Positions 1 through 62,972 of a stretch of 64,000 bases of DNA are shown in pieces. The notes beneath the pieces were generated by a model. That model saw only the letters and a program-made list of their open reading frames with translations, did not search any database and was not told where the DNA came from. The stretch spans positions 79,608,001 to 79,672,000 of the forward strand of contig NC_135812.1 in NCBI RefSeq assembly GCF_964213995.1. Reading direction: 5' to 3'. A program made the position numbers and the translations under genes. Within the stretch, counting starts at the first letter, position 1. Each line of letters opens with the position of its first letter. The stretch comes from Mustelus asterias. Taxonomy: Eukaryota.

Positions 1-1412
1 GAACGCTTACCCGAATATCAGAGGCCGAATGCCCGTGACCGCTGAAGTGCTCCCCAACAGGAAGAGAACAGTCTTGCCTGGTGATTGTCGAGCGGTGTTC
101 ATTCATCCGTTGTCGCAGCGTCTGCATAGTTTCCCCAATGTACCATGCCTCGGGACATCCTTTCTTGCAGCGTATCAGGTAGGCAACATTGGCCGAGTTG
201 CAAGAGTATGTACCGTGTACCTGGTGGATGGTGTTCTCACGTGAGATGATGGCATCTGTGTCGATGATCCGACACGTCTTGCAGAGGTTGCTGTGGCAGG
301 GTTGTGTGGTGTCATGGTCACTGTTCTCCTGAAGGCTGGGTAGTTTGCTGCGGACAATGGTCTGTTTGAGATTGTGCGGTTGTTTGAAGGCAAGAAGTGG
401 GGGTGTGGGGATGGCCTTGGCGAGATGTTCGTCTTCATCAATGACATGTTGAAGGCTCCGGAGGAGATGCCGTAGCTTCTCCGCTCCGGGGAAGTACTGG
501 ACAACGAAGGGTACTCTGTCCACTGTGTCCCGTGTTTGTCTTCTGAGGAGGTCGGTGCGGTTTTTCGCTGTGGCGCGTTGGAACTGTTGATCAATGAGTC
601 GAGCGCCATATCCTGTTCTTATGAGGGCATCTTTCAGCGTCTGGAGGTGTCTGGTGCGATCCTCCTCATCCGAGCAGATCCTGTGTATACGGAGGGCTTG
701 TCCGTAGGGGATGGCTTCTTTAACGTGTTTAGGGTGGAAGCTGGAGAAGTGGAGCATCGTGAGGTTATCTGTGGGCTTGCGGTACAGTGAGGTGCTGAGG
801 TGACCGTCCTTAATGGAGATGCGTGTGTCCAAGAATGCAACCGATTTCGGAGAGTAGTCTATGATGAGTCTGATGGTGGGATGGAACTTGTTGATGTCAT
901 CATATAGTTGTTTCAGTGATTGTTCACCATGAGTCCAAAGGAAGAAAATGTCATCGATGTATCTAGTGTATAGCATCAGTTGAAGGTCCCGTGCGGTGAA
1001 GAAGTCTTGTTCGAACCTGTGCATGAAGATGTTGGCATATTGAGGTGCGAATTTGGTCCCCATGGCTGTTCCGTGTGTCTGGATAAAGAACTGGTTGTTG
1101 AAGGTGAAGATATTGTGGTCCAGGATGAAGCGGATGAGATGTAAAATTGCATCTGGAAACTGGCAGTTGTTGGCGCTGAGCACTGAGGCCATTGCAGCAA
1201 TGCCATCGTCATGGGGGATGCTGGTGTAGAGTGCCGAGACATCCATTGTGACGAGGAGCGCTCCTGGTTCAACTGCTCCATGTGTGCCGAGTTTCTGTAG
1301 GAAGTCCGTCGTGTCGCGACAAAAGCTGGGGGTTCTTTGTACAATGGGTTTCAGGATGCCCTCGACATAGCCGGAGAGGTTCTCGCACAGGTTCTCGCAC
1401 AGGTTCTCGCAC
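1..1412 (-). mobile_element. Penelope-like element (RT + GIY-YIG), 5'-truncated, ORF open to window edge
   Basis: One minus-strand frame reads ...LVTMDVSALYTSIP...GTAMGT...YIDD (950-961)...VAYLIRCKKGCPEAWYIGET...RMNEHR. It is absent from the ORF track because it runs off the window without a stop. Confidence 0.95.
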
Positions 1413-1434
1413 ACTACTAGTACAGCTTGCCAAC

Positions 1435-2400
1435 CAGAAACAAACTCATTTGTCCCCACTCTCTGCTTCCTGGTTAGCCAATGCTCTATCCAAAACAATA
1501 TATTAAACCCAGACCCATGGGATCTCACCTTATGTCATACCTTTTTTGCAGCACCTTATCAAAAGCCATCTGGAAGTCCAGATACACTACATCTACAGAA
1601 TCCCTATGATCCACTCTGCTTATTACATCTTCAATGAACTCTAACAAATCAGTCAAACATTATTTATCCTTCATAAAACCATGCTGATTCTGACGGATTA
1701 TATTTTGACTTTCTAAATGTCATGTTACTACTTCGTTAATAATGGATTCAAACAGTGACATACATTAAGCTAACTGGTCTATAGTTTCCTACTCTCTGCC
1801 TTTTTGAACAGGGGTGTTACATTAGCTTTTTTTCTAATTCACTGGAACCCGTCCAGAATCCAGGAAATTTTGGAATAGTATAACCAATGCCTCCACTATC
1901 TCTGCTGCCACTTCCTTGAAGATCCGAGGATGAAGGCCATCAGGACCTGGGGACTTGTCCACCTTTTATCCAAATAGTTTGCTCAGTACTTCTTCCTTCG
2001 TGATGGTGATTGTTTTAAATTTCTCCTTTGCAACAACCTCTGCTTTACCTGTTACTGTTGGGATGGTTCTAGTGTCCTCCATGAAAACCAAGGCAAAATA
2101 TTGATTTTGTGTCTCTGCCCTTTCTGTGTTCCCCATTATTAACTCCCCAGTCTTGTCCTCTAAGGGAACAATGTTGAATTCAGCTAGTCTCTTCCTTTTT
2201 ATATACTTATAGAATCTTTTACTATCTTTTTTTTGCGGTAGATTTCTTTCATAACTTATATTTGTTCATTTTATTACTTTTTTAGTAACCCTTTGTTGAT
2301 CTTTAAACATTTCCCATCCTCCTGCCTGCCACTGATCTTTGCAATATTGTTTGCCTTAGTTTTTGCCTTTATGTTATCTTTAACTTCCTTGCTTAGCCAC
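1435..2400 (-). mobile_element. Degraded CR1 LINE ORF2 fragment
   Basis: Minus strand shows remnants of LDFQxAFDKV and NYRPVSL motifs; colinear with the CR1 at 54354-56612. Confidence 0.85.
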
Positions 2401-2842: not shown

Positions 2843-5283
2843 GTGTTCAGCGAGCGGGAGAGTCTGGACAGACCGTTATCTCTGGATGAGCTGACAAAGG
2901 CCGTCAAGTACTTTCAGAAGGGTAAAACTCCCAGAAGCGATGGCTTACCGGGTGAGTTTTACTCGGCGTTGTGGGACTTGACAGGCCCGGACCTGCTGGA
3001 TGTGTACGAAAGTATGCTTCTGGAAGGCAGCATGTCAGAATCCATGAGGAAAGGCATCATTACCCTCATCTACAAGCAGAAGGGGGAAAGAGAAGAAATT
3101 AGAAATTGATGACCCCTTTCACTATTGAACGTGGACTACAAAATTTTAGCCAAGGTCATCGCCAACCAGGTCAAGTTTGCTCTGGGGTTGGTGATCCATC
3201 CTGATCAAACCTGTGCTGAACCCAGCAGGAAGATCTCTGATAGCCTCGCGCTACTGAGGGATACGATTGCCTACGTGGAGGACAGGCAAGTGGACACCTG
3301 CCTCATCAGCCTAGACCAGGAGAAGGCGTTTGACAGAATATTGCACAGCTACATGATGGATGTGCTCTCCAAAATGGGCTTTGGGGATGGAATCCGCAAT
3401 TGGATCCAACTGCTCTACACAGATATCAGTAACGCAGTCTCAGTCAAAGGGTGGGAATCAGATAGTTTTCAGATCAGGTCTGGAGTTAGGCAGGGCTGCC
3501 CTCTCTCTTCCGTCCTTTTTGTGTGTTGCATTGAACCCTTTGCCGAGTCCATCAGAAAGGACCCAGGCATTAAAGGGGTTCCCATCCCAGGCAGCGGAGG
3601 CGCGCAGGTCAAAGCCTCCTTCTGCATGGATGACTTGGCTGTCTTCTGCTCAGATCTGTCATCTGTTCACAGGCTCTTCCAAGTCTGTGAGCAGTTCGAG
3701 TTGGCCTCGAGAGCCAAAGTTAACTGGAGCAAGAGCGAAGCTATGTTCTTTGGGAACTGGGCTGACAGATCCTTTGTCCCCTTCACCGTCAGGGCAGACT
3801 ACCTCAAGGTGCTGGGGATATGGTTTGGAGCGGCAGGGGCATGGGCCAAAAACTGGGAAGAGTGCATCGTCAAAGTAAGGCAGAAATTGGGCTTGTGGGA
3901 GCAACGCTCCCTCTCTATCACCGGAAAAAACCTGGTCATCCGGTGCGAGGTACTGTCCGTGTTGTTGTATGTGGCGTAGGTCTGGTCCATCCCCAAATCC
4001 TGCGCAGCAGCAGTGACCCAGGCCATCTTCAAATTTATCTGGAGATCAAAGATGGATTGTGTCCGGAGGAAAGCGATGCACAAATCTCTGGAGAATGGAG
4101 GGAAAAATGTTCCCAACGCCACCCTCATCCTGATGGCCACCTTTGTGTGCAGCTGCATCAAGCTGTGTGTAGATCCTTGGTACGCTAACACCAAGTGCCA
4201 CTACTTTTTGAGGTTCTACCTGTCCCAAATGTTACGGAAGATGGGTCTGGCCACACTGCCACGGAACGCTCCAAGGAGTTGGACCGTACCGCAGCACCTG
4301 TCCTTCGTGGAGAAATTTTTACGGAAACACACCTTTGACCACATGGCGATCAAATAGTGGTCAGCATGTAATGTCCTCGAGGCCCTGAGAGAAAAGGAGA
4401 TGGTGGATCCTGTCGGATGGTTCCCTGAGCAGACTGTCAGTGTCATCTGGCAGAATGCCTCATCACCAGAACTCACAAACAAGCACAAAAACCTGGCTTG
4501 GTTGGTGGTGTAAAGGGCACTTCCCGTCAGATCCTTCATGCACGCTTGAGGTCTCAACACTATCGCACGCTGCCCGCGAAGTAGCTGCGGGGGTGATGAG
4601 ACAGTCGCACACCTCCTTGTGGAATGTGCCTTTGCAAAGAAGGTCTGGAGTGAGATGCAGTGTTATTTCTCAAGCTTCATTCCCAGCAGCTCGGTGACGC
4701 AGGACTCTGTGCTCTACGGGCTGTTTCCAGGGACGCACACTGAGACAAATATCAACTGCTGCTGGAGGGTCATCAACTCGGTGAAGGATGCACTTTGGTC
4801 CGCCCGATCTTCCAGTGCAAAGATTTGTCCTCGACCGAGTGTTGCAGACTGGCACATTCCAAGGTCCAGGACTACGTGCTGGGGGATGCTCTCAAGCTTG
4901 GGGCAGCCACCACAAAGGCACAATGGGGAAAGGCCACAGTTTAAAGCCTTTCACCCAAGACAGACCGAGGGCCCAGTAACTGTAGAACACCCTCGGACTG
5001 CGTAACTGTGTGCTAATCTGTAAAAACAACAGCACACAGTGAAATGTGATGAATGTATATAGTTTGAAGGACTGAACTGTAATGAATGTAATGTCTTGTA
5101 AAACTGAGCACTGTAAAGTATCGTACATATGATTGGTCTTTTTTTGCACTGCTTGTAATTATCAGAAATGTTGTTTTGCAATGGTCTATTTCAGAGTATA
5201 TATAGAAACATAGAAACATAGAAAACTACAGCACAAAAACAGGCCCTTATATGAATAAAGTATATTTTTGAAATTTAAAAAAA
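2843..5283 (+). mobile_element. Tx1-type (L1 clade) LINE, 5'-truncated, disrupted ORF2
   Basis: NVDYKILAK, DQEKAFD, GVRQGCPLS, (Y>C)MDD and C-terminal CCHC (CPRSSCGGDETVAHLLVEC); in-frame stops; 3' end AATAAAGTATATTTTTG plus A tract. Confidence 0.95.
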
Positions 5284-5584
5284 TTGGCTAAGATCAAATA
5301 TAGTATCGGCAGTCCTGCACTTGATAGAAGTCAATGAGGTTACACTGAGGCTTCATTAGAAGCAATTTTTAAAAACAGCATCTCGGCCTTTTGGCTAAGA
5401 TGCAAATGAGATCAAGCACTGGAGGGGGTGCAATGCCCGCTTCTAACAGCTTGGATCATGTAGATCAAGCCCAGGACAGGAAGCGGCCAGCTTGTCTTGT
5501 CAGCTTGGATCTGTAATGTCTCACTGGTTGAGACTTTGAATTGGACTTTGATTGGATTGAGATTGGATATAGGTTAAAAGAAAA
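5284..5584 (+). mobile_element. U2 snRNA-headed SINE-like element, copy 1 (starts at U2 nt 17)
   Basis: 5284-5307 matches U2 nt 17-40 with 2 mismatches; 5381-5401 matches U2 nt 7-27; body colinear with 46992-47620; GATTG-type repeats and A-rich end. Confidence 0.9.
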
Positions 5585-8063
5585 TTGTCATCTGGGGGGG
5601 AGGCAGTTGCTCACAGGCCTCACTTTCCCTTCATGCCAGGCTGTCCCTTGGTTTAAAGGGGTCTGGCAGCTGGCATGCAGGCAACACTCCCATGTCCCCT
5701 TTGCTGATTGGAGCCAAGTTCTTAACCTTTTGGAAATGTTGGCCCTATTCCTTTAAGGGGCTGCACCTTTTACTTTGTCCCACATTTTATTTGATTTAAT
5801 TTAACTTCTTTATCCAAAAGAGTTGGAAGCATTGATTCCAAGCATAGAACTCCAATGCTCATACTAACATCTGTTAAGAGTGATCACACTGATGTGGACC
5901 CCAATATCCCGTTCAAGGTCATGACGTGAAGCACCCTTGAGGACCCCGTGAGGTTCAAACACTGACCCAATGCATGCACTCAATTGCACTATTCCCTAAT
6001 GCTTGGGTTGGGTGGGGGGTGGGGGAGGGGGGACATGGTCGAGGGTGTTAGTCACCACTGAGATTGTCTAGCTTCATTCGGGTGAGATGGACAACTGTGG
6101 GGAAGTGGGTATTGTGTGAAAGGGGAGGGAGTGAGGCTTAGTGGAGAGGTGCTCACAGAGAGGGAAGCACATGGGTGGATGTCTCAGAAGTGTGGGGAGG
6201 GCTGAGAATACTGTCAGGAATATTCATCACTCACTTTGATGTTCTCTTCCTTCAGTTTTCAATTCTGGACAATCATGGAACCAGTCGAGTTGACAATTCT
6301 ATTGATTGCGATCGACCAATAACAGTGACATTGACGTGCTGCTGCACACGGCCAGCACCAGCGCCCTGCAGAGGAGGGGGAGGCTGGGCCTGTTGCTCTT
6401 CCAGGAGAAGAACCATAGATGGTGGAGCCTCGGAGGTGACACAACTGGCAAAGGTCCTTCTAACATTGAACATCCTGCATCTAGATATTAGAGCTGCAGT
6501 GCCGGAGAAGACTGCATCTGTCCCGGGGGATGGTGGACCACCTTTGCCAAGTTATGCAAAGTTGACATCACATGGACTGGGAGGTCAGCAATTGTCTGTT
6601 TCCCTTAAAGTTGCTGCCGCTCTGAATTTCTATGCCAGTGGCTCATTACAGTGTAGCATGGGCGACCTGTGGGCCTTTCCCAGGCAGCCGCACACAGGTA
6701 TTTGCCAGGGCCCATGTGGACACCAACTTGGACCAGGACTAGTTTCACCCAATTAGCAGGCATGCCCTAGGTGCAGGATGTCATTGACTGCCACCCATGT
6801 GGCTCTGCGGTCTCCAGGGTGGCATGGGGCCACGAGGGATACCAGTCTCTCAATGTCTAAAACGCCATGTGCATCATGCAGGTCTGTACCCATTTCCTGG
6901 GGAGCATCCATGGCAGGTATGTCTTGGGACACTTGCGGATCCCAGCCATCTTTGAGGGAGAGCAGCGACTGAGGGATGGCTCCTCGGGGACAGGACATAC
7001 TCCCTCATAAGGTAGCTGATGACGCCAGTGCGGAGGACACAAATGCCCGCTGAGGTTTGCTGTAACGCAGTTCATGAATCAACGCGAGTGCTGGTTAGCA
7101 GGCAATTGGACTGCTGAAGATTTGGTTCTGGTGCCTGGTCCCCTGTGATACAGCTCCCAGAGAGCTTCCCGCATTATTGTGGTCTGCTGTGCCTTCCTTA
7201 ACTTGGCGCTGCCGTAGGAAGACCAGCTGGACAGGAGGAGATGGGGGACCCATCTTATAGTAAACTTTTCTTCTTACAGAAAACACATGTGCCCAAAAGC
7301 TCTGGTCCCACCTTCTGCGGTAATCATAGTGAGCGGGACGGATGATTGAAAGGTCAATTGAACTCGGGCAGGAAATTCTGGTCCCTGGGTGGGTGGGAAT
7401 AGAGATTTCCGCCCATGCATTTCAATGCAGTGACTTTTAAAAGATATGGCAGAATGAGAGCTTCATTACCTGATGCATAATGCCAAGGGGAATTAGAACA
7501 TGCAAAATAGAAAGAGATCATATGGCATAAGATTGCTACACCAGCTATTGAAAGGAGATATTCCATTAAGCTCACTCTCTGACATTTTCACCATCACTCT
7601 CTAACTTCTTATTTTTCAAGTATTTATCGGATTCTCTTTAGAAGTTACTATTAAATCTGCTTTGACATCCTTTCAGGCAATTCATTCCAAATCTCATCAA
7701 GTCCCCATGTTAAATAATTTCTCCTCATCTCCTTTTGCTTCTTTTCCCAATTACCTCAAATCAATATCCTTTGGTTACTGAATCTCCTGTCAGTGTAAAG
7801 TTTCTCTATTTACTATATCAAATTTTCGATTTGGTTTGATTTATTATTGTCACTAATGCATGTGACAATAATAAATCAAATCAAATCAAAAATTCCTTCA
7901 TGATTTTGAACGCATCTGTTAAATTCTTTTCACTTGACTTGTGAACAGTTAGCGTTCTTGACAATGAGCAGCTGACTCTCTGTTTTTTAGTCAACAGTAT
8001 CAAGGTCTTAATCCAATTCAAGGATTCAAATTCAGTCTTTGTGCCCGAAATTCTACAGCGCCT

Positions 8064-25301: not shown

Positions 25302-26168
25302 AACATGTTTCTTTGTCAGAAGGAACTTATAGAAATGCATGCAAATGTCTTATTATGTGACGATGTGATAACTTTAATGTAAGTTTGATTAAAAACAGAA
25401 TGATGAAAGAAAACATTTTGGTGTTAAAATAATTGCAATTTACATACAAAAAGTAGAAGTTTAAAAAGTCAAAATTGATTTATTAGTCACAAGTAAGGCT
25501 TACATTAACACTGCAATTAAGTCACTGTAAAATTCCCGTGACTTTTACTGCGAATTACTGTGAAAATATATAATTACAGATCTTGCCAGAACAGCATTGA
25601 ACTAATGGAGATCTTTGAGCGGTGAAGAGGTTTAAACATAGATCTTGATTCAACAAACCTGGCGGGCCTTTTAGCTTCTTAAAAAATTTGAATTACATTC
25701 AGCGTGTAAAAGCTTTCATTATCACAAAAACACTCTTTCAAAACTGCATCTCTACTGGAGTGCTGCAGCTGAAATTAATCAGAGCTTTTAATAGCCTTAT
25801 CTATTCTCAATCGGATAATAGTCATTTCAATAGGATCAAAAAAATTGATTCACATTTCTTTTGTTTCAAATTTTTAATCCAAAAATATTTTCAAAGTGAT
25901 TTCGATCCCAGTTTTGACAATTTTTGGAAAGTACAAATGAACATTAATATGTGCGTTCCTATAGATTAATTGATGAGTCGCTTCAAAATAGTTTTGATTG
26001 GCTTCACAAATTCCTTCAATGCAATGAATACTTTCTTAAATCCTACTGTACATTTTATGTCTGCAACTATGTACCTGACCATCATCTTAGACACAATGAT
26101 GGGTTTAATTGACCATATGTAACTTGCAGAAATTTTCAGCAAATTGACAATTCAAGCAACAGCTAAAT

Positions 26169-26342
26169 TTTTTTTTTATACTTTTCCAATTCAATCAAAT
26201 CAAATCCAATTCAGAGTCTCAACAAGTTGAGACATTTCAGATCCAGGCTGACAAGACAGGACGGGAGACCAAAACCACCCTGTCCTGGGCCTGATCTACA
26301 TGAGTCAAGCTGATTGGAGAAGGGGGAGGATCCGCCTCCAAG
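26169..26342 (-). mobile_element. U2-headed SINE-like element, copy 2 (5'-truncated)
   Basis: 3' half colinear with the other copies; poly(A); direct repeat CAAGCAACAGCTAAAT at 26153-26168 and 26339-26354. Confidence 0.9.
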
Positions 26343-42831: not shown

Positions 42832-43376
42832 CATAGAACATAGAACATAGAAAAACTACAGCACAAACAGGCCCTTCGGCCCACAAGTTGTGCCGAACAC
42901 ATCCCTACCTTCTAGACCTACCTATAACCCTCCATCCTATTAAGCTCCATGTACTCATCCAGGAGTCTCTTAAAAGACCCTATTGAGTTCGCCTCCACCA
43001 CCACTGACGGCAGCCGATTCCACTCGCCCACCACCCTCTGTGTGAAAAACTTACCTTTAACATCTCCCCTGTACCTACCCCCCAGCACCTTAAACCTGTG
43101 TCCTCTCGTAGCAGACATTTCCACCCTGGGAAAAAGCCTCTGAGAGTCCACCCGATCTATGCCTCTCAACATCTTATACACCTCTATTAGGTCTCCTCTC
43201 ATCCTTCGTCTCTCCAAGGAGAAAAGACCGAGCTCCCTCAGCCTATCCTCATAAGGCATGCCACTCAATCCAGGCAACATCCTTGTAAATCTCCTCTGCA
43301 CCCTTTCAATCTTTTCCACATCCTTCCTATAGTAAGGCGACCAGAACTGAGCACAGTACTCCAAGTGGGGTCTGAC
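42832..43376 (-). mobile_element. CR1 LINE 3' fragment (young)
   Basis: Open frame; closely similar to 61225-61755; (TTCTATG)n tail. Confidence 0.95.
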
Positions 43377-46991: not shown

Positions 46992-47620
46992 ATCGCTTCT
47001 CGGCCTTTTGGCTAAGATCAAGTGTAGTATCGACATGCTGTACTTGGTTGAAGTCATTAGGTTACATTTTAGCTTCATTTGAAGCTATTTTTAAGAGTGG
47101 CATCTCGGCCTTTTGGCTAAGATGCAAATGAGATCAAGCCTTGGAGGAGGTGCAATGCCTACTCCAATCAGCTAGGATCATGTGGTTCCCAAACCTTTTT
47201 CACTGGGCCGCACTTTCGGAATAAAAATTTGCTCGCGCCACACTGAATTTTTTATTGATAAGAAATACATTCAAAAACAAAAATAAACAACTAGCAGTGC
47301 TTGATTCATAACATAGAACACAACTACTTTATAATATGATCATGGGACATCGTCCTCAGCATCACTTGATGCTCTTGCTCTCACTTTGGAAAAATATCTA
47401 TCCATGTTTCAATGTTTCTTTGATTGTCCTTGAATCTTCCCACCACACTTGCCATCCCCCTCACCGCACCAGTGTGGCACGCCGCACCCTTTGGGAACCA
47501 CTGATGTAGATCAAGCCCAAGACAGGAGGTGCGAGCCCTGTCTTGTCAGCTTGGATCGGGAATGTCTCACTTGTTGAGACTCTGAATTGGACTTGATTTG
47601 ATTGAATTGGATTTTTTAAA
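46992..47620 (+). mobile_element. U2 snRNA-headed SINE-like element, copy 3 (full length, interrupted by a hAT MITE)
   Basis: 46992-47031 equals U2 nt 1-40; 47103-47123 equals U2 nt 7-27; TSD AACTGGGTA at 46981-46989 and 47621-47629. Confidence 0.92.
47182..47503. mobile_element. hAT (Charlie-type) MITE
   Basis: GTGGTTCCCAAA...TTTGGGAACCACTG TIRs; right flank ATGTAGAT; left junction partly deleted. Confidence 0.85.
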
Positions 47621-47916
47621 AACTGGGTATATTCAATAGTAAAATTCCACCTACTTAAAACGAAGGAATTGAACTCCCAGGGCAAGACTGATATTGGCTG
47701 GAAATGAGAGTGTTATTTATAAATGTATGTAAATAAATATTTGCACAGTTATGATTTAGGCAGGATCATCAGAATAGACAATTTTGTTAATATGTACATA
47801 GGCTGGAATTAGAGTCATTGGGAGGAATGTAGCAGGCGAGGGTTGGACCATGGAAAGGTCCTTTGACCTCGGGTGGGAATTTCTGGTTTTGGGGCGAGCG
47901 TGGCCCATTGAGTCAT

Positions 47917-51949: not shown

Positions 51950-54900
51950 CCCCCGCCCCCTCCGGAGTCCTACAATCTCCTGCAACAGGGGGAGTCAGAA
52001 GGTGTAGCCACAGCTGCAGTCTCCTGGGTGGAAGGCCTCAGCACAGGCTCAGCCCTTCCTCTTCTTTCGGAGTTCCTGTGGGCCCCTGGGTCGCTATGTG
52101 GGGACAGTGATACTTCTGCCGTGAGCTCCAGAAGCTCCAGCATCATCTGGCCCTGCCAGTCCTGGAGGACCACTTGCATTCTAGCCATGGTGGTTGAGCC
52201 CTCTGCGACGGCCACATGAGTAGGAGGACCACCTGTCAATGGCAGCAGCAAGTGACATCTGAGACAGGGCCACGCTTTGCAGGTTACACTGGACCGCATT
52301 CTCAAAGGCTGCTGCCGTAGCCTGCTGTGTCTTGGCGCTGTCCAACTGGGTCTCCTACAAGTTCTCCAACCTCTCAGCCATGGGCCACAGAATCTCGAGA
52401 AGCCTATTGAGGCCCTCAGCTGTGGCCCGCTGTAACTTGGCCATTGCTTGGACCCTGCCACTCATGGTGAAGATTTCCTGCCCCAGGCTTTCCATTGCAG
52501 ATGCCACCTTTGCAGTGTTGGCCTGGGAACCACGCAAGACAGGCAATAGCTGGTCCACTTTGGGACTCCTCCCAGCAGCCTCACAGTTGGTCCAGTGTGA
52601 CCGTCAGCCTCTCCTGCATTCCCTGGCTCTATTGCAGCATCTCCAGCAGCTGAAGGAGAGGTGATCGCAGAGGCCCAGCATGTAGCCTGGGGCCAGCTGA
52701 GTCCTCGCCTCCGGCAGGTCCCCACATGCCAGAGGCCTCGGATGTTTCCTTCTCCACCTGATGTACATCAGCAGATGTGTCGTGCGCACCAGAGAGTGAC
52801 CCAGATGCCGCGCCACTAACTTGACCCACTGATGTGAGAGTCTCTGGGATGGTGAATTGCGAGGTGGAAGCTGACGTGAAACTGGTGCCGGCCTCGGAGC
52901 TCCCTTCATCAGCTTCCTCCGAGGAGCCTTCCGAGCTGTCAGGGGCAGGATGGGCGGGAGCAGCAGTGGGGGCCGCGATGCCAGATGGCCCAGGTGTGTC
53001 GGATCCCTTCCTGCAACTTTGGACACAAGGTTAATTGCAAGGGAGGGAGAGGAATCTGGGCTGCATGCAACTTACTTGACATTTCTCTATAAAGTGAAGG
53101 ATTGGCAGTTGCTCACTCCAATGCTCCAGCCTGACCATGGTGTCGCTTATCATCTGCATTCCCTCCTCTCCCGCAAGCTCCAGTGCCCGCTCCTCAAAGC
53201 GGGTGAGGACTCGGATGTCAGGCTCATCACCCCCTGTCTTTGCCCTCTCCTGGCGGTTATGGGCATTCTTCTCCTGTGGGGACAGAAGGAGCCTTGAAAA
53301 ATCTGATGGCACGAGTCCTGCAGGGTATCAGGGGGTGGCCCTCCGAGGGTAAGGGTTGTGATACTCTTGGGGGAGAGGAGGGAGGTGCTTGGGGGTCAGG
53401 GCCTGGAACATAAGAACATAAGAAATAGAAGCAGGAGTAGGCCATCTGGCCCCTCAAGCCTGCTCCGCCATTCAATAAGATCATGGCTGATCTGATAGTG
53501 GGTTCAGTTCCACTTACCCGCCCGCTCCCCATAACCCTTAATTCCCTTATTGGCTAAAAACCTATCTATCTGTGACTTAAACGCATTTAATGAGGTAGCC
53601 TCTACCGCTTCATTGGGCAGAGAATTCCAAAGATTCACTACCCTCTGGGAGAAGAAGTTCCTCCTCAACTCTGTTCTAAATTGACTCTCCCGTATTTTGA
53701 GGCTATGCCCCATAGTTCTTGTTTCCATTGTAAGTGGAAACAATCTCAATGTTTCTACCCTGTCTAGCCCCTTCATTATCTTATATGTCTCTATAAGATC
53801 TCCCCTCAACCTTCTAAACTCCAAAGAGTACAGGCCCAGTCTGCTCAATCTTTCCTCATAAGCTAACCCCCTCATCTCTGGAATCAACCTGGTGAACCTT
53901 CTCTGCATCCCTTCCAAAGCCAATACATCCTTTCTTAAATAAGGGGACCAAAACTGTACACAGTACTCTAGATGCGGCCTCACCAGTACCCTGTACAGTT
54001 GCAGCATGACCTCCCTGCTTCTATACTCCATCCCTCTCGCGATAAAGCTCAACATTCCATTTGCCTTCTTGACCACCTGCTGCACCTGCAAACTGTGTTT
54101 TTGTGATTCATGCACAAGGACCCCCAGGTCCCTCTGCACAGCAGCATGTTGTGATTTTTCACCGTTTAAATAACAGTCCCTTTTCCTATTATTCCTTCCA
54201 AGGTGGATAACCTCACACTTACCAATGTTATACTCCATCTGCCAGATCCTCGCCCACTCACTGAGCCTATCCAAATCTCTCTGCAGACTCTCTGTGTCTT
54301 CCACGCAATTTGCTTTCCCACCCATCATAGTGTCACCCGCAAACTTTGTTACCCTACAGATCATCTATGTATATGGTAAATAGTTGAGGCCCCAGCACCG
54401 ATCCCTGCGGCACGCCACTAGTCACGGATTGCCAACCAGAAAAGCACCCATTTATACCTACTCTCTGTTTTCTGTTAGACAGCCAATCTTCAATCCACGC
54501 TAACACTTTACCCCCAACTCCGTGCACCTTTATCTTTTGCAGTAACCTTTTGTGAGGCACCTTATCGAAAGCCTTCTGGAAATCCAAATACAATACATCC
54601 ACCGGTTCCCCCCTGTCAACCGCACTCGTTACCTCCTCAAAAAACTCCAGTAAATTAGTCAAACATGACTTTCCCTTCCTGAATCCATGCTGCATCTGCT
54701 TGATTGAACCATTCTTATCCAGGTGTCCTGCTATTTCTTCCTTTGTGATAGATTCCAGCATTTTCCCAACTACGGATGTTAAGCTAACCGGCCTGTAATT
54801 ACCTGCCTTTTGTCTGCCTCCTTTTTTAAACAGTGGCGTTACATTAGCTGTTTTCCAATCAGCTGGCACCTCCCCAGAGTCCAGTGAATTTTGATAGATT

Positions 54901-57804
54901 ACAACTAATGCATTTGCTATTGCCTCTGCCGTTTCTTTTAGTACCCTGGGATGCATTCCATCCGGACCATGGGACTTTAGTCCCAGTAGCCTACCCAGCA
55001 CCAACTCCTTAGTAATAGTGATCGTTTTAAGGTCCTCACCCCCTACAGTCCCATGACCGTCAATTATTGGTAAGCTATTTGTGTCCTCCACTGTGAAGAC
55101 CGACACAAAAAACTTGTTTAAGGCCTCAGCCATTTCCTCGTTTCCCATTATTAAATCCCCCTTCTCATCTTCTAAGGGACCAACATTTACTTTAGCCAAT
55201 CTTTTCCTTTTTATATATTTGTAAAAACTCTTACTAATAGTTTTTATATTTTGGGCTAGTTTACTTTCATACTCTATCTTTCCTTTCTTTATTGCTTTCT
55301 TCGTAGTTCTTTGTTGCTTTTTAATGCCTTCCCAATCCTCTAATTCCCCACTAATCTTGGCCACTCTGAATGCATTGGTTTTTAATTTGATACTTTCCTT
55401 TATCTCCTTAGTTATCCATGGCTGGTTATTCCTTTTATTACATCCCTTCTTTTTCACTGGAATATATTTTTCCTGAGTACTGAGAAAAATCTCCTTACAA
55501 ATCCTCCACTGTTCCTCAACTGTCCCACCAATTAGTCTGTGTTCCCAGTCTACATTAGCCAACTCTGCCCTCATCCTATTGTAATCCCCCTTGTTCAAGC
55601 AGAGGACATTGGTTTGGAACCCTACTTTCTCACCCTCCATCTGTATTAGAAATTCAACCATATTGTGATCACTCATTCCAAGAGGATCCCTCACAAGGAG
55701 ATCATTTATTTTACCTGTCTCATTACACAGGACCAGATCCAGGATAGCTTGCTCCCTCGTAGGTTCTGTAACATACTGTTCGAGGAAACTATCGCAACAG
55801 CATTCTAAGAACTCTTCCTCAAGTGCACCGCGTCCGACTTGAGTTGACCAATCAATGTGGAGGTTAAAATCCCCCATGATTACTGCTGTTCCATTTCTAC
55901 ATGCATCTGTTATTTGTTTGTTTATGGCCTGCCCCACCTCGAAGTTATTATTTGGGGGCCTATAGACTACGCCCACCAGTGACTTTTTCCCCTTACTATT
56001 CCTTATCTCCACCCACATTGATTCCACATTTTGCTCCTTAGAGCCTATATCGTCTCTCACTACCGCCCTGATGTTATCCTTAATTAACAGAGCTACCCCA
56101 CCTCCTTTTCCTTCCTGTCTATCCTTCCGAATTGTCTGATACCCGCGGATATTTAGTTCCCAGTCCTGGTCACTCTGCAACCACGTTTCTGTAATGGCCA
56201 CTAGATCATACCCATTTGTACTAATTTGTGCCGTCAACTCATTCACTTTGTTTCGAATGTTATGTACATTCAGGTAAAGTGTCTTTATGTTAGTCTTTCT
56301 TACCTGGACTCGATTTGTTAGTGCGTTCCTTTGTTTGCATGCTCTGTCCCTTCCTGTCACAGACTGGTTATTCTTCCCCAGACCATCTCCTTGCACTGTG
56401 TTGACCACCTCCTTTCTCATGCTTGTCACCTTTTTTACTCTGCCTGAGGTTAGATTCCTGCCATCTTCTATACTCTCTGTTCTATTACGTGGTCTGGAAA
56501 CTTTATTAACCTCTCCTGAGCTCTCATCTCCTTTAACTAATTGAAAGTCCTCATCATTAACCTGCACTCCTACCCTCTCCTTTACCTTTGATTTTCTAAT
56601 TCTCCATACCACTGACCCCTCCCCCTCACTATTTAGTTTAAAGCCCTATCTACAGCCCTAGTTATACGATTCGCCAGGACTCTGGTCCCAGCACGATTCA
56701 GACGAAGACCATCCCGTCGGTACAGGTCCCATCTTCCCCAATACTGGTGCCAATGTCCCATGAATTCAAACCCCTTCCTCCCACACCAATCTTTGAGCCA
56801 CGCATTTACCTCCTTAATCTTATTGACCCTGTGCCAATTCGCTCGTGGCTCAGGTAGTAGTCCAGAGATTATTACCTTTTTTGTTCTGATTTTCAATTTA
56901 GATCCTAACTTTTCATATTCCCTTAGCAGAACCTCAGTTCCTGTTCTTCCTATATCGTTGGCACCTATGTGGACCACGACAACTGGATCTTTACCCTCCC
57001 ACTCCAAGTTCCTCTGCAGCCCCAGATGAGATATCCTGAACCCGAGCACCAGGCAGGCAACACAACCTTCAGGATTCTCGATCCTGGTCACAGAGAACAG
57101 TGTCAATGCCCCTAACTATACTATCCCCAGTTACGACTACATTTCTTTCTTCTCCCCCCACTTGAACGGCTCCCTGTACCACGGTGCTGTGGTCAGTTTG
57201 CTCATCCTCCCTGCATTCCCTGTTCCCGTCCACACAGGTAGCAAGAATCTCGAACCTGTTGGACAAGTTCAGGGACTGAGGCTCCGGTAACACTACTCCC
57301 TGGATCCCTCTACCTGCCTCACCCGCAGCCACACCCTCTTCTCCCTGACCACTGTCTGAATTCAAGGTAGTTTTTCTAAGGGGTGTGACTGCTTCCTGAA
57401 ACACAGCGTCCAGGTAACTCTCCCCCTCCCTGATATGTCGCAGTGTCTGGAGCTCACAATCCAGCTCATCCACACTGAGCCGGAGTTCCTCAAGCAACCA
57501 ACACTTACTGCAGACATGCTCACTTGGAACAACAGTGGGGTCCACCAGCTCCCACATCATGCAGAAACAACACATCACATGACCCTCGCAGGGTGCTGGG
57601 AGTGGGGGGATCTGGGGGTCATTTAGGGGAAAGATGCTAGATGAGGTGAAACGCTCCCCCTTGCTGCCCAGATTAGCTTATTTGTTTATGGCACTGCTTT
57701 CCAGTTCTCCTGGCCAGTGCCTTGGCACTAATGCATGTTGCCACAACCTCCCAGGCTGTGTTTCCATCGCTTCCCCTGGAACGACATCCTGTTGGGGTGA
57801 AGAG
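51950..57804 (-). pseudogene. Harbinger Myb/SANT-like partner gene, convergent, intron-containing
   Basis: Exon near 57665-57804 reads AWEVVATCISAKALARRTGKQCHK; the next exon reads EKNAHNRQERAKTGG...LTRFEERALEL (about 53075-53273), followed by a low-complexity/coiled-coil region. Confidence 0.8.
53407..57588 (-). mobile_element. Near full-length CR1 LINE (ORF1 zinc finger + SGNH esterase, ORF2 EN-RT)
   Basis: ORF1 CxxC...CxxC, GDSIVRG, HIGAND; ORF2 AITETW, GDFN, SDH, GVPQGSVLGP, YIDD; frameshifts near 57090 and 54360; (TTCTTATG)n tail. Confidence 0.97.
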
Positions 57805-60172: not shown

Positions 60173-61224
60173 TGTTGAAGTGGAAATTTTCCTGCTTCTT
60201 GACTGTGATAGAAAAACTCAACAAAGTTCGTTCCAACAAAACAACTAGTATTTATTTACGAAAGACTGCATGCAGTTTTGGCTGAAAACTTGAGTTCAGA
60301 GAGCAGTTGGTACAACTTGCTAATTCCTCCTCAAGTCCGCCATTACACAAAGAATCAGTTCGGTATTTATACATAATCATTATCAGTTTGCGTGACCAGA
60401 GCATATTCAGGAATTCGATTAGTAATAGAATCATAAGCAATGCCATTAATCATGTCATAACTTGCTGACCTCCTAGAACATTCATACCCTTATCTTGTCC
60501 TTTGATGGAACAGAAAAAGGTCGGTGACTCCTTCATCCCTGACCTTATCTTGTCTTATTTACTCATACAGTCTTAAAGTTATGCGGAGTCAGCCTTGCTT
60601 ATATTGTACCAAATAGCTGACCAATTTTCCCATCATGCTATTCCTTAGTTCATACAACTTCACATTCCCTCCTTTTGTCATATCATGACAACTAATTAAA
60701 TAGGGATATCCATAACCCAATTAAAAGTGCATTTATACAAGCAACCAAGCAATCCTATCCCCAATAGCAGTAGTAGTAGTAACATGAAGGCCTTAAAGAT
60801 CCAATCGAATAATCCGTGACCCAGCCATCCTAACCAACCCGCTGGGTCATAATCATGAAATTCACAGCTAATCTCTTGAATTTGATCAGCCTGTCTCTTA
60901 ATATGGTCGGCCAGGTTGGTGATATTTTCAGAGGCATCTGGGATATAAGTACCACATTCCTGACCTACAATGGCGCACGTTCCTCCCTGCGAGGCTAACA
61001 GATAATCCAAAGCCATTCGATTTTGTACTGCCACGGTCCGGACAGCCACCAGCTCAGCCGAGACCTCGGCCAGTGCCTGTCCAGTTGCCCTGGCATTTTC
61101 CGCCGTTATTACGTTTGCCAGTTGTTCCAATGCTGAGGTCATAAGAATCAGTTTGTTGGCTGCCCTGCCCCTTCCATGTAGTGGAAAGGCCATCATGCTA
61201 TTCCTTAGTTCATACAACTTCACA
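60173..61224 (-). mobile_element. env: Internally deleted endogenous retrovirus (35 bp of 5' LTR, env TM, PPT, 3' LTR)
   Basis: ISD QNRMALDYLLASQGG, CAIVGQECG (CX6CC variant), TM anchor; PPT AAAAGGAGGGAA; LTR 60173-60664 TGTGAAG...CTTCAACA; 61190-61224 duplicates 60630-60664. Confidence 0.92.
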
Positions 61225-61755
61225 ACTTCTGGTCGCCTCATTACAGGAAGGATGTAGAAATTATTGAAAGGGTGCAGAGAAGATTTACAAGGATGTTGCC
61301 TGGATTGGGTGGCATGCCTTATGAGGATAGGTTGAGGGAGCTCGGTCTTTTCTCCTTGGAGAGACGAAGGATGAGAGGTGACCTGATGGAGGTGTACAAG
61401 ATGTTGAGAGGTATAGATCGGGTGGATTCTCAGAGGCTTTTTCCCAGGGCTGAAGTGGCTGCTACAAGAGGACACAGGTTTAAGGTGCTGGGGAGTAGGT
61501 ACAGAGGAGATATCAGGGGTACGTTTTTCACTCAGAGGGTGGTGGGTGAGTGGAATCGGCTGCCGTCAATGGTGGTGGAGGCAAACTCGATAGGGTCTTT
61601 TAAGAGACTTCTGGATGAGTACATGGGACTTAATAGGATTGAGGGTTATAGGTCAGCCTATATATAGGCCTAGGTAGGTGGGGACATGACCGGCGCAACT
61701 TGTGGGCCGAAGGGCCTGTTTGTGCTGTAGTTTTTCTATGTTCTATGTTCTATGA
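61225..61755 (+). mobile_element. CR1 LINE 3' fragment (young)
   Basis: ORF 61272-61667 and (TTCTATG)n tail. Confidence 0.95.
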
Positions 61756-62825: not shown

Positions 62826-62972
62826 TTTATTATTTCAAAAATATACCTTTTTCTTATACAATCTGAAAAACATTACAGAAACATTTCCGATCGTTACAAC
62901 AGCAAAAAGCAATCATATTTACATTTCCCTTGAGATCAAAATTTACACTGTGCCCAGTCTAAAATCATTACA
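62826..62972 (-). mobile_element. Tx1-type 3' UTR fragment
   Basis: Minus strand ends GTATATTTTTGAAAT, as does the Tx1 at 5260-5275. Confidence 0.6.

Follow-up and report, generated by a model that had tools for sequence, protein, structure and literature searches.

Introduction

Keno is presented as a Tx1-clade, U2-specific element (PMC4494074, PMC4640811, PMC6136364), and the U2 target sequence published for it starts at nt 39 (PMC6136364, PMC4640811). In crocodilians, SINEU-1, -2 and -3 have been described together with Tx1-Mar, which clusters with Keno, and the account given there of SINEU distribution places none outside crocodilians (PMC4494074). The same account records tandem SINEU-3 copies around a duplication and neighbours that are SINEU or Tx1, leaves SINEU transcription open and deduces the Tx1 partner only from the common target (PMC4494074). 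For R1 tandems, the published explanation is that new elements insert into the 5′ duplication (PMC2718515); in Drosophila, double insertions have been shown broadly, with P-element dimers favouring better-matching sites (10.1101/158386).

The stretch analysed here, 64,000 nucleotides of the Mustelus asterias genome (contig NC_135812.1; hereafter the window), holds a Tx1-clade LINE that runs into a SINE with a U2 head. The LINE lineage resembles Keno in its coding content (the intact copy L180 has an APE-type endonuclease, reverse transcriptase (RT) and zf-RVT in ORF2, and a CCHC ORF1) and in its 3′ flank, which at 8 distinct junctions is the published U2 target from nt 39 on; the preliminary description of this DNA, which had proposed Keno-like targeting of U2, was right in this respect. 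It differs from Keno in that it is not strictly U2-specific, with about 9 of 707 tail-motif copies or array founders at the U2 site and most copies dispersed, and in that full-length copies carry a U2 nt 1-33/35 head of their own. The window Tx1 itself lies outside U2 genes, yet belongs to a lineage with U2 nt 39 junctions. Its protein homologues are named TX1-like, and neither a Keno nor a Tx1-Mar label occurs among 120 listed homologues or 8 clusters.

By description, the SINE resembles SINEU: it is short (<500 nt) and poly(A)-tailed, carries a U2 head (presumably U1 in one relative) and target duplications, and has at least 5,931 exact tail motifs. Further likenesses are heads that are repeated, tandemly arranged copies separated by a duplication, a Tx1 partner with an snRNA head, and a target preference common to SINE and partner, seen here in U2 nt 39 junctions and in stacks of the two elements. 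The difference lies in that common target, which is a Mariner element there and the U2 gene here, placing copies behind the U2 promoter. Like R1 tandems and Drosophila double insertions, the stacks are head-to-tail, with a target duplication between the elements and the newcomer at the 5′ duplication. However, the R1 target is strict, whereas stacking here is frequent at near-random sites, and, unlike both systems, these stacks mix LINE and SINE, elements of one era. New relative to SINEU and Tx1 are the U2 gene as common target and the unusually frequent stacking. Among the papers listed in our search of the openly accessible literature, none describes this LINE/SINE pair or the stacking of LINEs on SINEs at degenerate sites.

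Results

A Tx1 LINE joined to a U2-headed SINE

The features at the junction, by window position, are:

2850-5283 (+): 5′-truncated, decayed Tx1-clade LINE, comprising ORF2 from just upstream of the RT domain (RVT_1 match), 3′ UTR and poly(A)
5203-5248 (-): 3′ end of another repeat, about 46 nt, antisense in the Tx1 3′ UTR
5277-5283 (+): Tx1 poly(A), seven A
5280-5286 (+): middle copy of a candidate short target duplication that ends in U2 nt 17-19 (3 nt)
5284-5307 (+): SINE head, 5′-clipped, U2 nt 17-40; 22 of 24 positions match U2, the reference being a genomic copy
5284-5584 (+): U2-headed SINE, about 300 nt, with an A tail ending at 5584
5381-5401 (+): second, internal U2 piece, nt 7-27, within the SINE
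5581-5587 (+): candidate target duplication, 3′ copy, the same 7-mer as 5280-5286

As the preliminary description had it, the Tx1 poly(A) (5277-5283) runs directly into U2 nt 17 of the SINE (5284-5307). The same description found no U2 nt 1-16 at a Tx1 5′ junction near 2843; that absence stands, but the break lies at 2849/2850. A 5′ target duplication was sought for the window Tx1 and not found, and the order of insertion at this locus is therefore taken from the family. The element starts at the equivalent of nt 2947 of a 5.3-kb full-length copy and shares 87% identity with a lineage that has younger copies in U2 genes. Judged by sequence, it is an older member of that lineage, and in a within-genome tree of 31 rows, with bootstrap not settled, it forms an early branch of a ladder leading toward the U2-inserted copies. 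The pair belongs to the oldest group: the SINE (fold z -2.5) is of the oldest class seen, and Tx1 and SINE each lie about 12% from their nearest copies.

The duplicated 7-mer has only 3 non-A bases and is weak evidence by itself; short duplications like it occur at three other junctions (L007, L008 and L086). The first three bases past the poly(A) are ambiguous: they read as U2 nt 17-19 and may at the same time belong to a short target duplication. At the orthologous locus, the Tx1 5′ junction is spanned at 5-10% divergence by contigs from runs of five organisms (B, C, E, F and G), and the SINE 3′ end by a contig of organism C; neither an empty site nor a SINE without the Tx1 turned up among the contigs of these five runs, a set from which organism A was excluded as a possible source of this DNA. 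The repeat end at 5203-5248, which we take to be a CR1-like tail, matches window positions 42833-42876 and 61710-61753 and is missing from other Tx1 copies.

LINE-SINE stacks recur across the genome

Tx1 3′ ends were collected from the 3.68-Gb genome as exact copies of a 21-nt tail motif (n=707, a set into which some Tx1 tails of other types and a 15-unit array also fall). U2 nt 19-30 occurred within 8-60 nt of the motif in 99 of the 707 (reversed-pattern control, 0). With 7,590 U2 heads genome-wide, 0.039 such pairs are expected by chance, an enrichment of about 2,500-fold, and the window junction is thus not the unique case that would have counted against the partnership put forward in the preliminary description. 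The genome holds at least these 99 pairs, of which about 91 are distinct events and the remainder look like segmental duplicates; no dispersed copies with the window's identical junction but different flanks were present among the 99 listed pairs. SINE tails also precede U2 heads far beyond expectation (443 of 5,931 against 0.40 expected). A head follows a Tx1 tail twice as often as a SINE tail (14.0% against 7.5%).

Samples drawn blind to the junction gave a similar picture. Among the first 30 tail matches, a U2 head followed in 5 and U2 nt 39 in 1. In a second set of 60 copies chosen by RT similarity, about 7 of which share flanks and are duplicates, the 3′ end could be located in 51, with a family neighbour downstream in 13 of these; a family neighbour stood upstream in 6 of the 60.

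SINE-SINE stacks were also considered as simple tandem duplications, a reading that we rejected, with only 2 of 29 neighbours at least 98% alike. One row of five SINEs (G000:C2:112471163-112472552) has an identical short duplication between its members.

Junction structure and order of insertion

We examined 91 of the 99 junctions, leaving out 7 apparent duplicates and one U2-gene locus. The Tx1 body was not found in 2; 88 lead to a SINE and 1 to a Tx1. The usual junction consists of the poly(A), a locus-specific target duplication and a variably clipped U2 head. Heads most often start at U2 nt 1 (21 of 89), and a start at nt 17 is confined to the window (1 of 89). The spacer between poly(A) and head has a median of about 10 nt and differs in 88 of 89 cases. 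In 50 of 88 it matches the sequence behind the SINE tail over at least 7 nt, at offset 0 in 29 of the 50 and within 3 nt in 38; the other 12, with offsets above 3 nt, look by eye like tail-parsing errors. The spacer is a target duplication common to both stacked elements. The second duplication looks freshly drawn in length (7-17 nt), as expected under either timing of the two insertions.

These duplications also record the order of arrival. A Tx1 that inserted after the SINE can have a 5′ duplication that takes in the first bases of the SINE; for a Tx1 that inserted before it, the duplication can reach into the far flank. Among the 91 junctions, the Tx1 5′ duplication extended into the SINE head in 11 and into the far flank in none, and was equal in 21 (p 0.001). 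The rest comprised 42 without a detected 5′ copy, the window junction among them, 9 without a 3′ copy, 5 without a 5′ end and 3 others, from a duplication-finding script that misses some cases. Since extension into the SINE head occurs and extension into the far flank does not, the upstream element arrived later: across the family, the SINE came first and Tx1 second. At one junction (L211) the duplication is U2 nt 1-13 itself.

Stacked neighbours match in age

Tx1 and SINE distances co-vary over 77 pairs, two of which are near-duplicates (Mantel test, Spearman 0.61, 0 of 2,000 permutations), and the nearest-neighbour divergences of stacked pairs are likewise correlated (rho 0.39, p 0.0004). 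All 42 of the youngest Tx1 copies, defined by at least 93% identity to a young reference, are stacked on the youngest SINE class, which accounts for 24 of 30 copies sampled blind (p 0.004); SINE class labels were assigned after seeing the data, whereas the Mantel test is label-free. By an eye count, the youngest class makes up 73 of 100 listed copies. Measured by divergence, stacked neighbours are drawn from matching subfamilies, whose eras may span millions of years.

Among 37 classifiable SINE-SINE pairs, 4 mix classes, each with the younger upstream of the older and none reversed, an arrangement that fits later re-cutting of an existing insertion. In 30 triple duplications (310 positions), where power is low, the odd copy was the 5′ one in 8 cases, the middle one in 1 and the 3′ one in 2; with an odd 3′ copy in only 2 of 11, no long lag between insertions is visible.

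Target sites and U2 genes

A target logo built from 32 solo and 41 stack sites, with duplicates not fully removed, holds about 4 bits. Solo sites resemble the U2 target slightly more than background does (5.2 against 4.6 of 14 positions, p 0.004), and stacked sites resemble it no more than solo ones do (5.4 against 5.2 of 14, p 0.40). Outside U2, a few sites within other repeats have been used more than once, with 3 of 220 at one U2-like site, so insertion hot spots exist. Independent insertions at an identical base of other repeats were seen for L296, L085 and L086 and for L073, L217 and L306; by eye, about 12 of 16 positions at the site of the first three agree with U2 nt 39-54.

Exact junctions of poly(A) with U2 nt 39-52 number 28, of which 14 are distinct: 8 carry the tail of this Tx1, 4 a SINE tail and 2 another. 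The U2 target of the Tx1 lineage thus lies between nt 38 and 39. SINE copies on C1, C14, C21 and C24 stand directly behind the upstream sequence of intact U2 genes, which matches exactly in 50 intact U2 5′ regions. Full-length Tx1 is 5.3 kb long, begins with U2 nt 1-33/35 and encodes a CCHC ORF1 and an APE-RT ORF2; taken together, Tx1 and SINE both begin with U2 nt 1 to 33-40. In 3 of 60 Tx1 copies, additional U2 sequence reaches to about nt 52-58 ahead of the element's own head. Two of them (L188 and L200) have non-U2 3′ flanks, and in L200 the extension begins at nt 1, as expected of read-through from a U2 promoter.

On C24, at 44.82-44.94 Mb of G000 (L103-L122), there is a 15-unit tandem array with a period of about 8,035 nt; each unit pairs an intact U2 gene with a second U2 copy split by a full-length Tx1, so the LINE was amplified along with the U2 cluster. 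On C21, at 28.04-28.08 Mb (L123-L126), four Tx1 copies and one SINE end at U2 nt 39 in a U2 cluster of both orientations, where the insertions stand beside intact genes. The preliminary description had also pointed to a similar Tx1 tail lacking a U2 flank; it lies at 62832-62972 (-) of the window and finds its best match (79-81%) in another type of Tx1 tail. This second type also includes L093 and L128, and in one copy it is followed by U2 nt 39-53; more than one Tx1 lineage may use the U2 site. At L009:1800-2100, a SINE relative is stacked between two U2-headed elements, with a head ahead of its U2 piece that we take to be U1-like and a duplication that includes the head of the next element.

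Origin of the stacks

Both elements land at the same base inside U2 genes, which makes it likely that the SINE borrows the Tx1 enzymes. From this common U2 site, the stacking and the co-varying subfamilies, we infer that the SINE is very probably mobilised in trans by the Tx1 ORF2 protein; the recurrent stacks, with their roughly 2,500-fold enrichment, and the nt 39 site give good support to the partnership first suggested for the window. For the stacks themselves, we lean towards a single integration episode in which the same LINE enzymes acted at the same nick, with the SINE first and Tx1 second. Such stacked insertion at one nick, favoured by the data, was absent from the mechanisms listed in the preliminary description. 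The proposed course would begin within U2 genes, in which copies of the Tx1 lineage and of the SINE alike have their 3′ ends at U2 nt 39; both elements carry U2 heads. Copies there would be transcribed from the upstream U2 promoter, the presumed source of the head, and the Tx1 ORF2 protein would copy SINE RNA in trans. Outside U2 genes, the elements show little sequence preference when they insert. Across the family, another element then joins the first on its upstream side, at the very same base, and the target is duplicated again, the duplication sometimes taking in the first bases of the earlier element; this second round would be primed at a still unsealed or freshly re-cut bottom-strand nick, with the enzyme's own Tx1 RNA often serving as template. 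In the window, the SINE head was probably clipped at nt 17-20 via a 3-nt match to the target end.

The same partners in the same order could also result from separate events, if the intact 5′ target of an earlier insertion were re-cut later. R1 tandems (PMC2718515) and P-element dimers (10.1101/158386) are explained in this way in the respective accounts, and the recurrent sites in other repeats are consistent with it, as are the mixed SINE-SINE pairs with the younger class upstream (4 of 37, none reversed). However, sites of about 4 bits hold far too little information for a 1,000-2,500-fold enrichment, solo sites match the target just as well as stacked ones, none of the 42 young Tx1 copies lies on an older SINE class, and later re-cutting would require an unseen, short-lived mark on fresh insertions. 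We regard it as rather unlikely, if the most serious of the alternatives.

For the window copy by itself, the reverse transcriptase might have stopped copying the SINE at nt 17 and moved directly to the Tx1 poly(A) with no target copied between. The window spacer of 0-3 nt suits such a jump, as does the excess of Tx1 over SINE tails upstream of a head (14.0% against 7.5%), as if the enzyme turned to its own RNA. Spacers of 1 nt or less are found at only 7 of 89 junctions, though; the three bases after the window poly(A) recur behind the SINE tail, the short-spacer junctions L007, L008 and L086 repeat their spacer behind the SINE, and no duplication surrounds the whole composite. A bare switch is improbable even here, and as a general mechanism it leaves the duplicated target between the elements unexplained. 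The remaining early proposals, that Tx1 cuts between U2 nt 16 and 17 with later loss of nt 1-16 or that the pair moved by 3′ transduction, we consider highly improbable. The window 5′ junction has no duplication and a deletion is possible there, but a head start at nt 17 is seen once in 89 against a mode at nt 1, which also leaves insertion followed by deletion without support as a general mechanism, and the actual U2 site is between nt 38 and 39. The predicted flanking duplication of U2 nt 17-40 was not seen around full-length Tx1 copies, which carry their own U2 head instead. For the family, 3′ transduction is excluded, as 88 of 89 spacers differ and the spacers are found again behind the SINE tail; neither a shared downstream sequence nor a single duplication around the composite was found.

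A broader form of the favoured single-episode reading, which we put forward tentatively and rate somewhat short of an even chance, is that a Keno-type enzyme routinely pastes several RNAs serially into one unsealed cut (serial target-primed reverse transcription), that between 1/7 and 1/4 of LINE insertions are LINE-SINE stacks, and that a SINE without its own promoter is renewed via U2 genes. SINE and LINE meet at one base in U2 genes, behind the U2 upstream region, which makes the idea of a borrowed promoter testable. With hundreds of natural examples, the stacks provide a record of event order at non-LTR integration sites, and they suggest that such a site is reusable before or soon after repair. 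Such reuse bears on 5′ junction formation and on product purity in retrotransposon-based gene insertion.

Further elements in the window

Two further copies of the SINE are present:

46992-47625 (+): second SINE copy, head complete (U2 nt 1-40), with a 9-nt duplication on either side
26155-26326 (-): third SINE copy, 5′-truncated, with a 14-nt duplication

The second copy is interrupted at 47184-47503 by what is probably a small DNA transposon, an insert of about 320 nt with inverted ends. A further APE-RT LINE, open over 763 aa, occupies 53504-57677 (-) and is 66% like window positions 1409-2364. At 60696-61565 (-), a 289-aa frame with a Pfam match to TLV_coat (env; E 1e-8) is probably a retroviral remnant.
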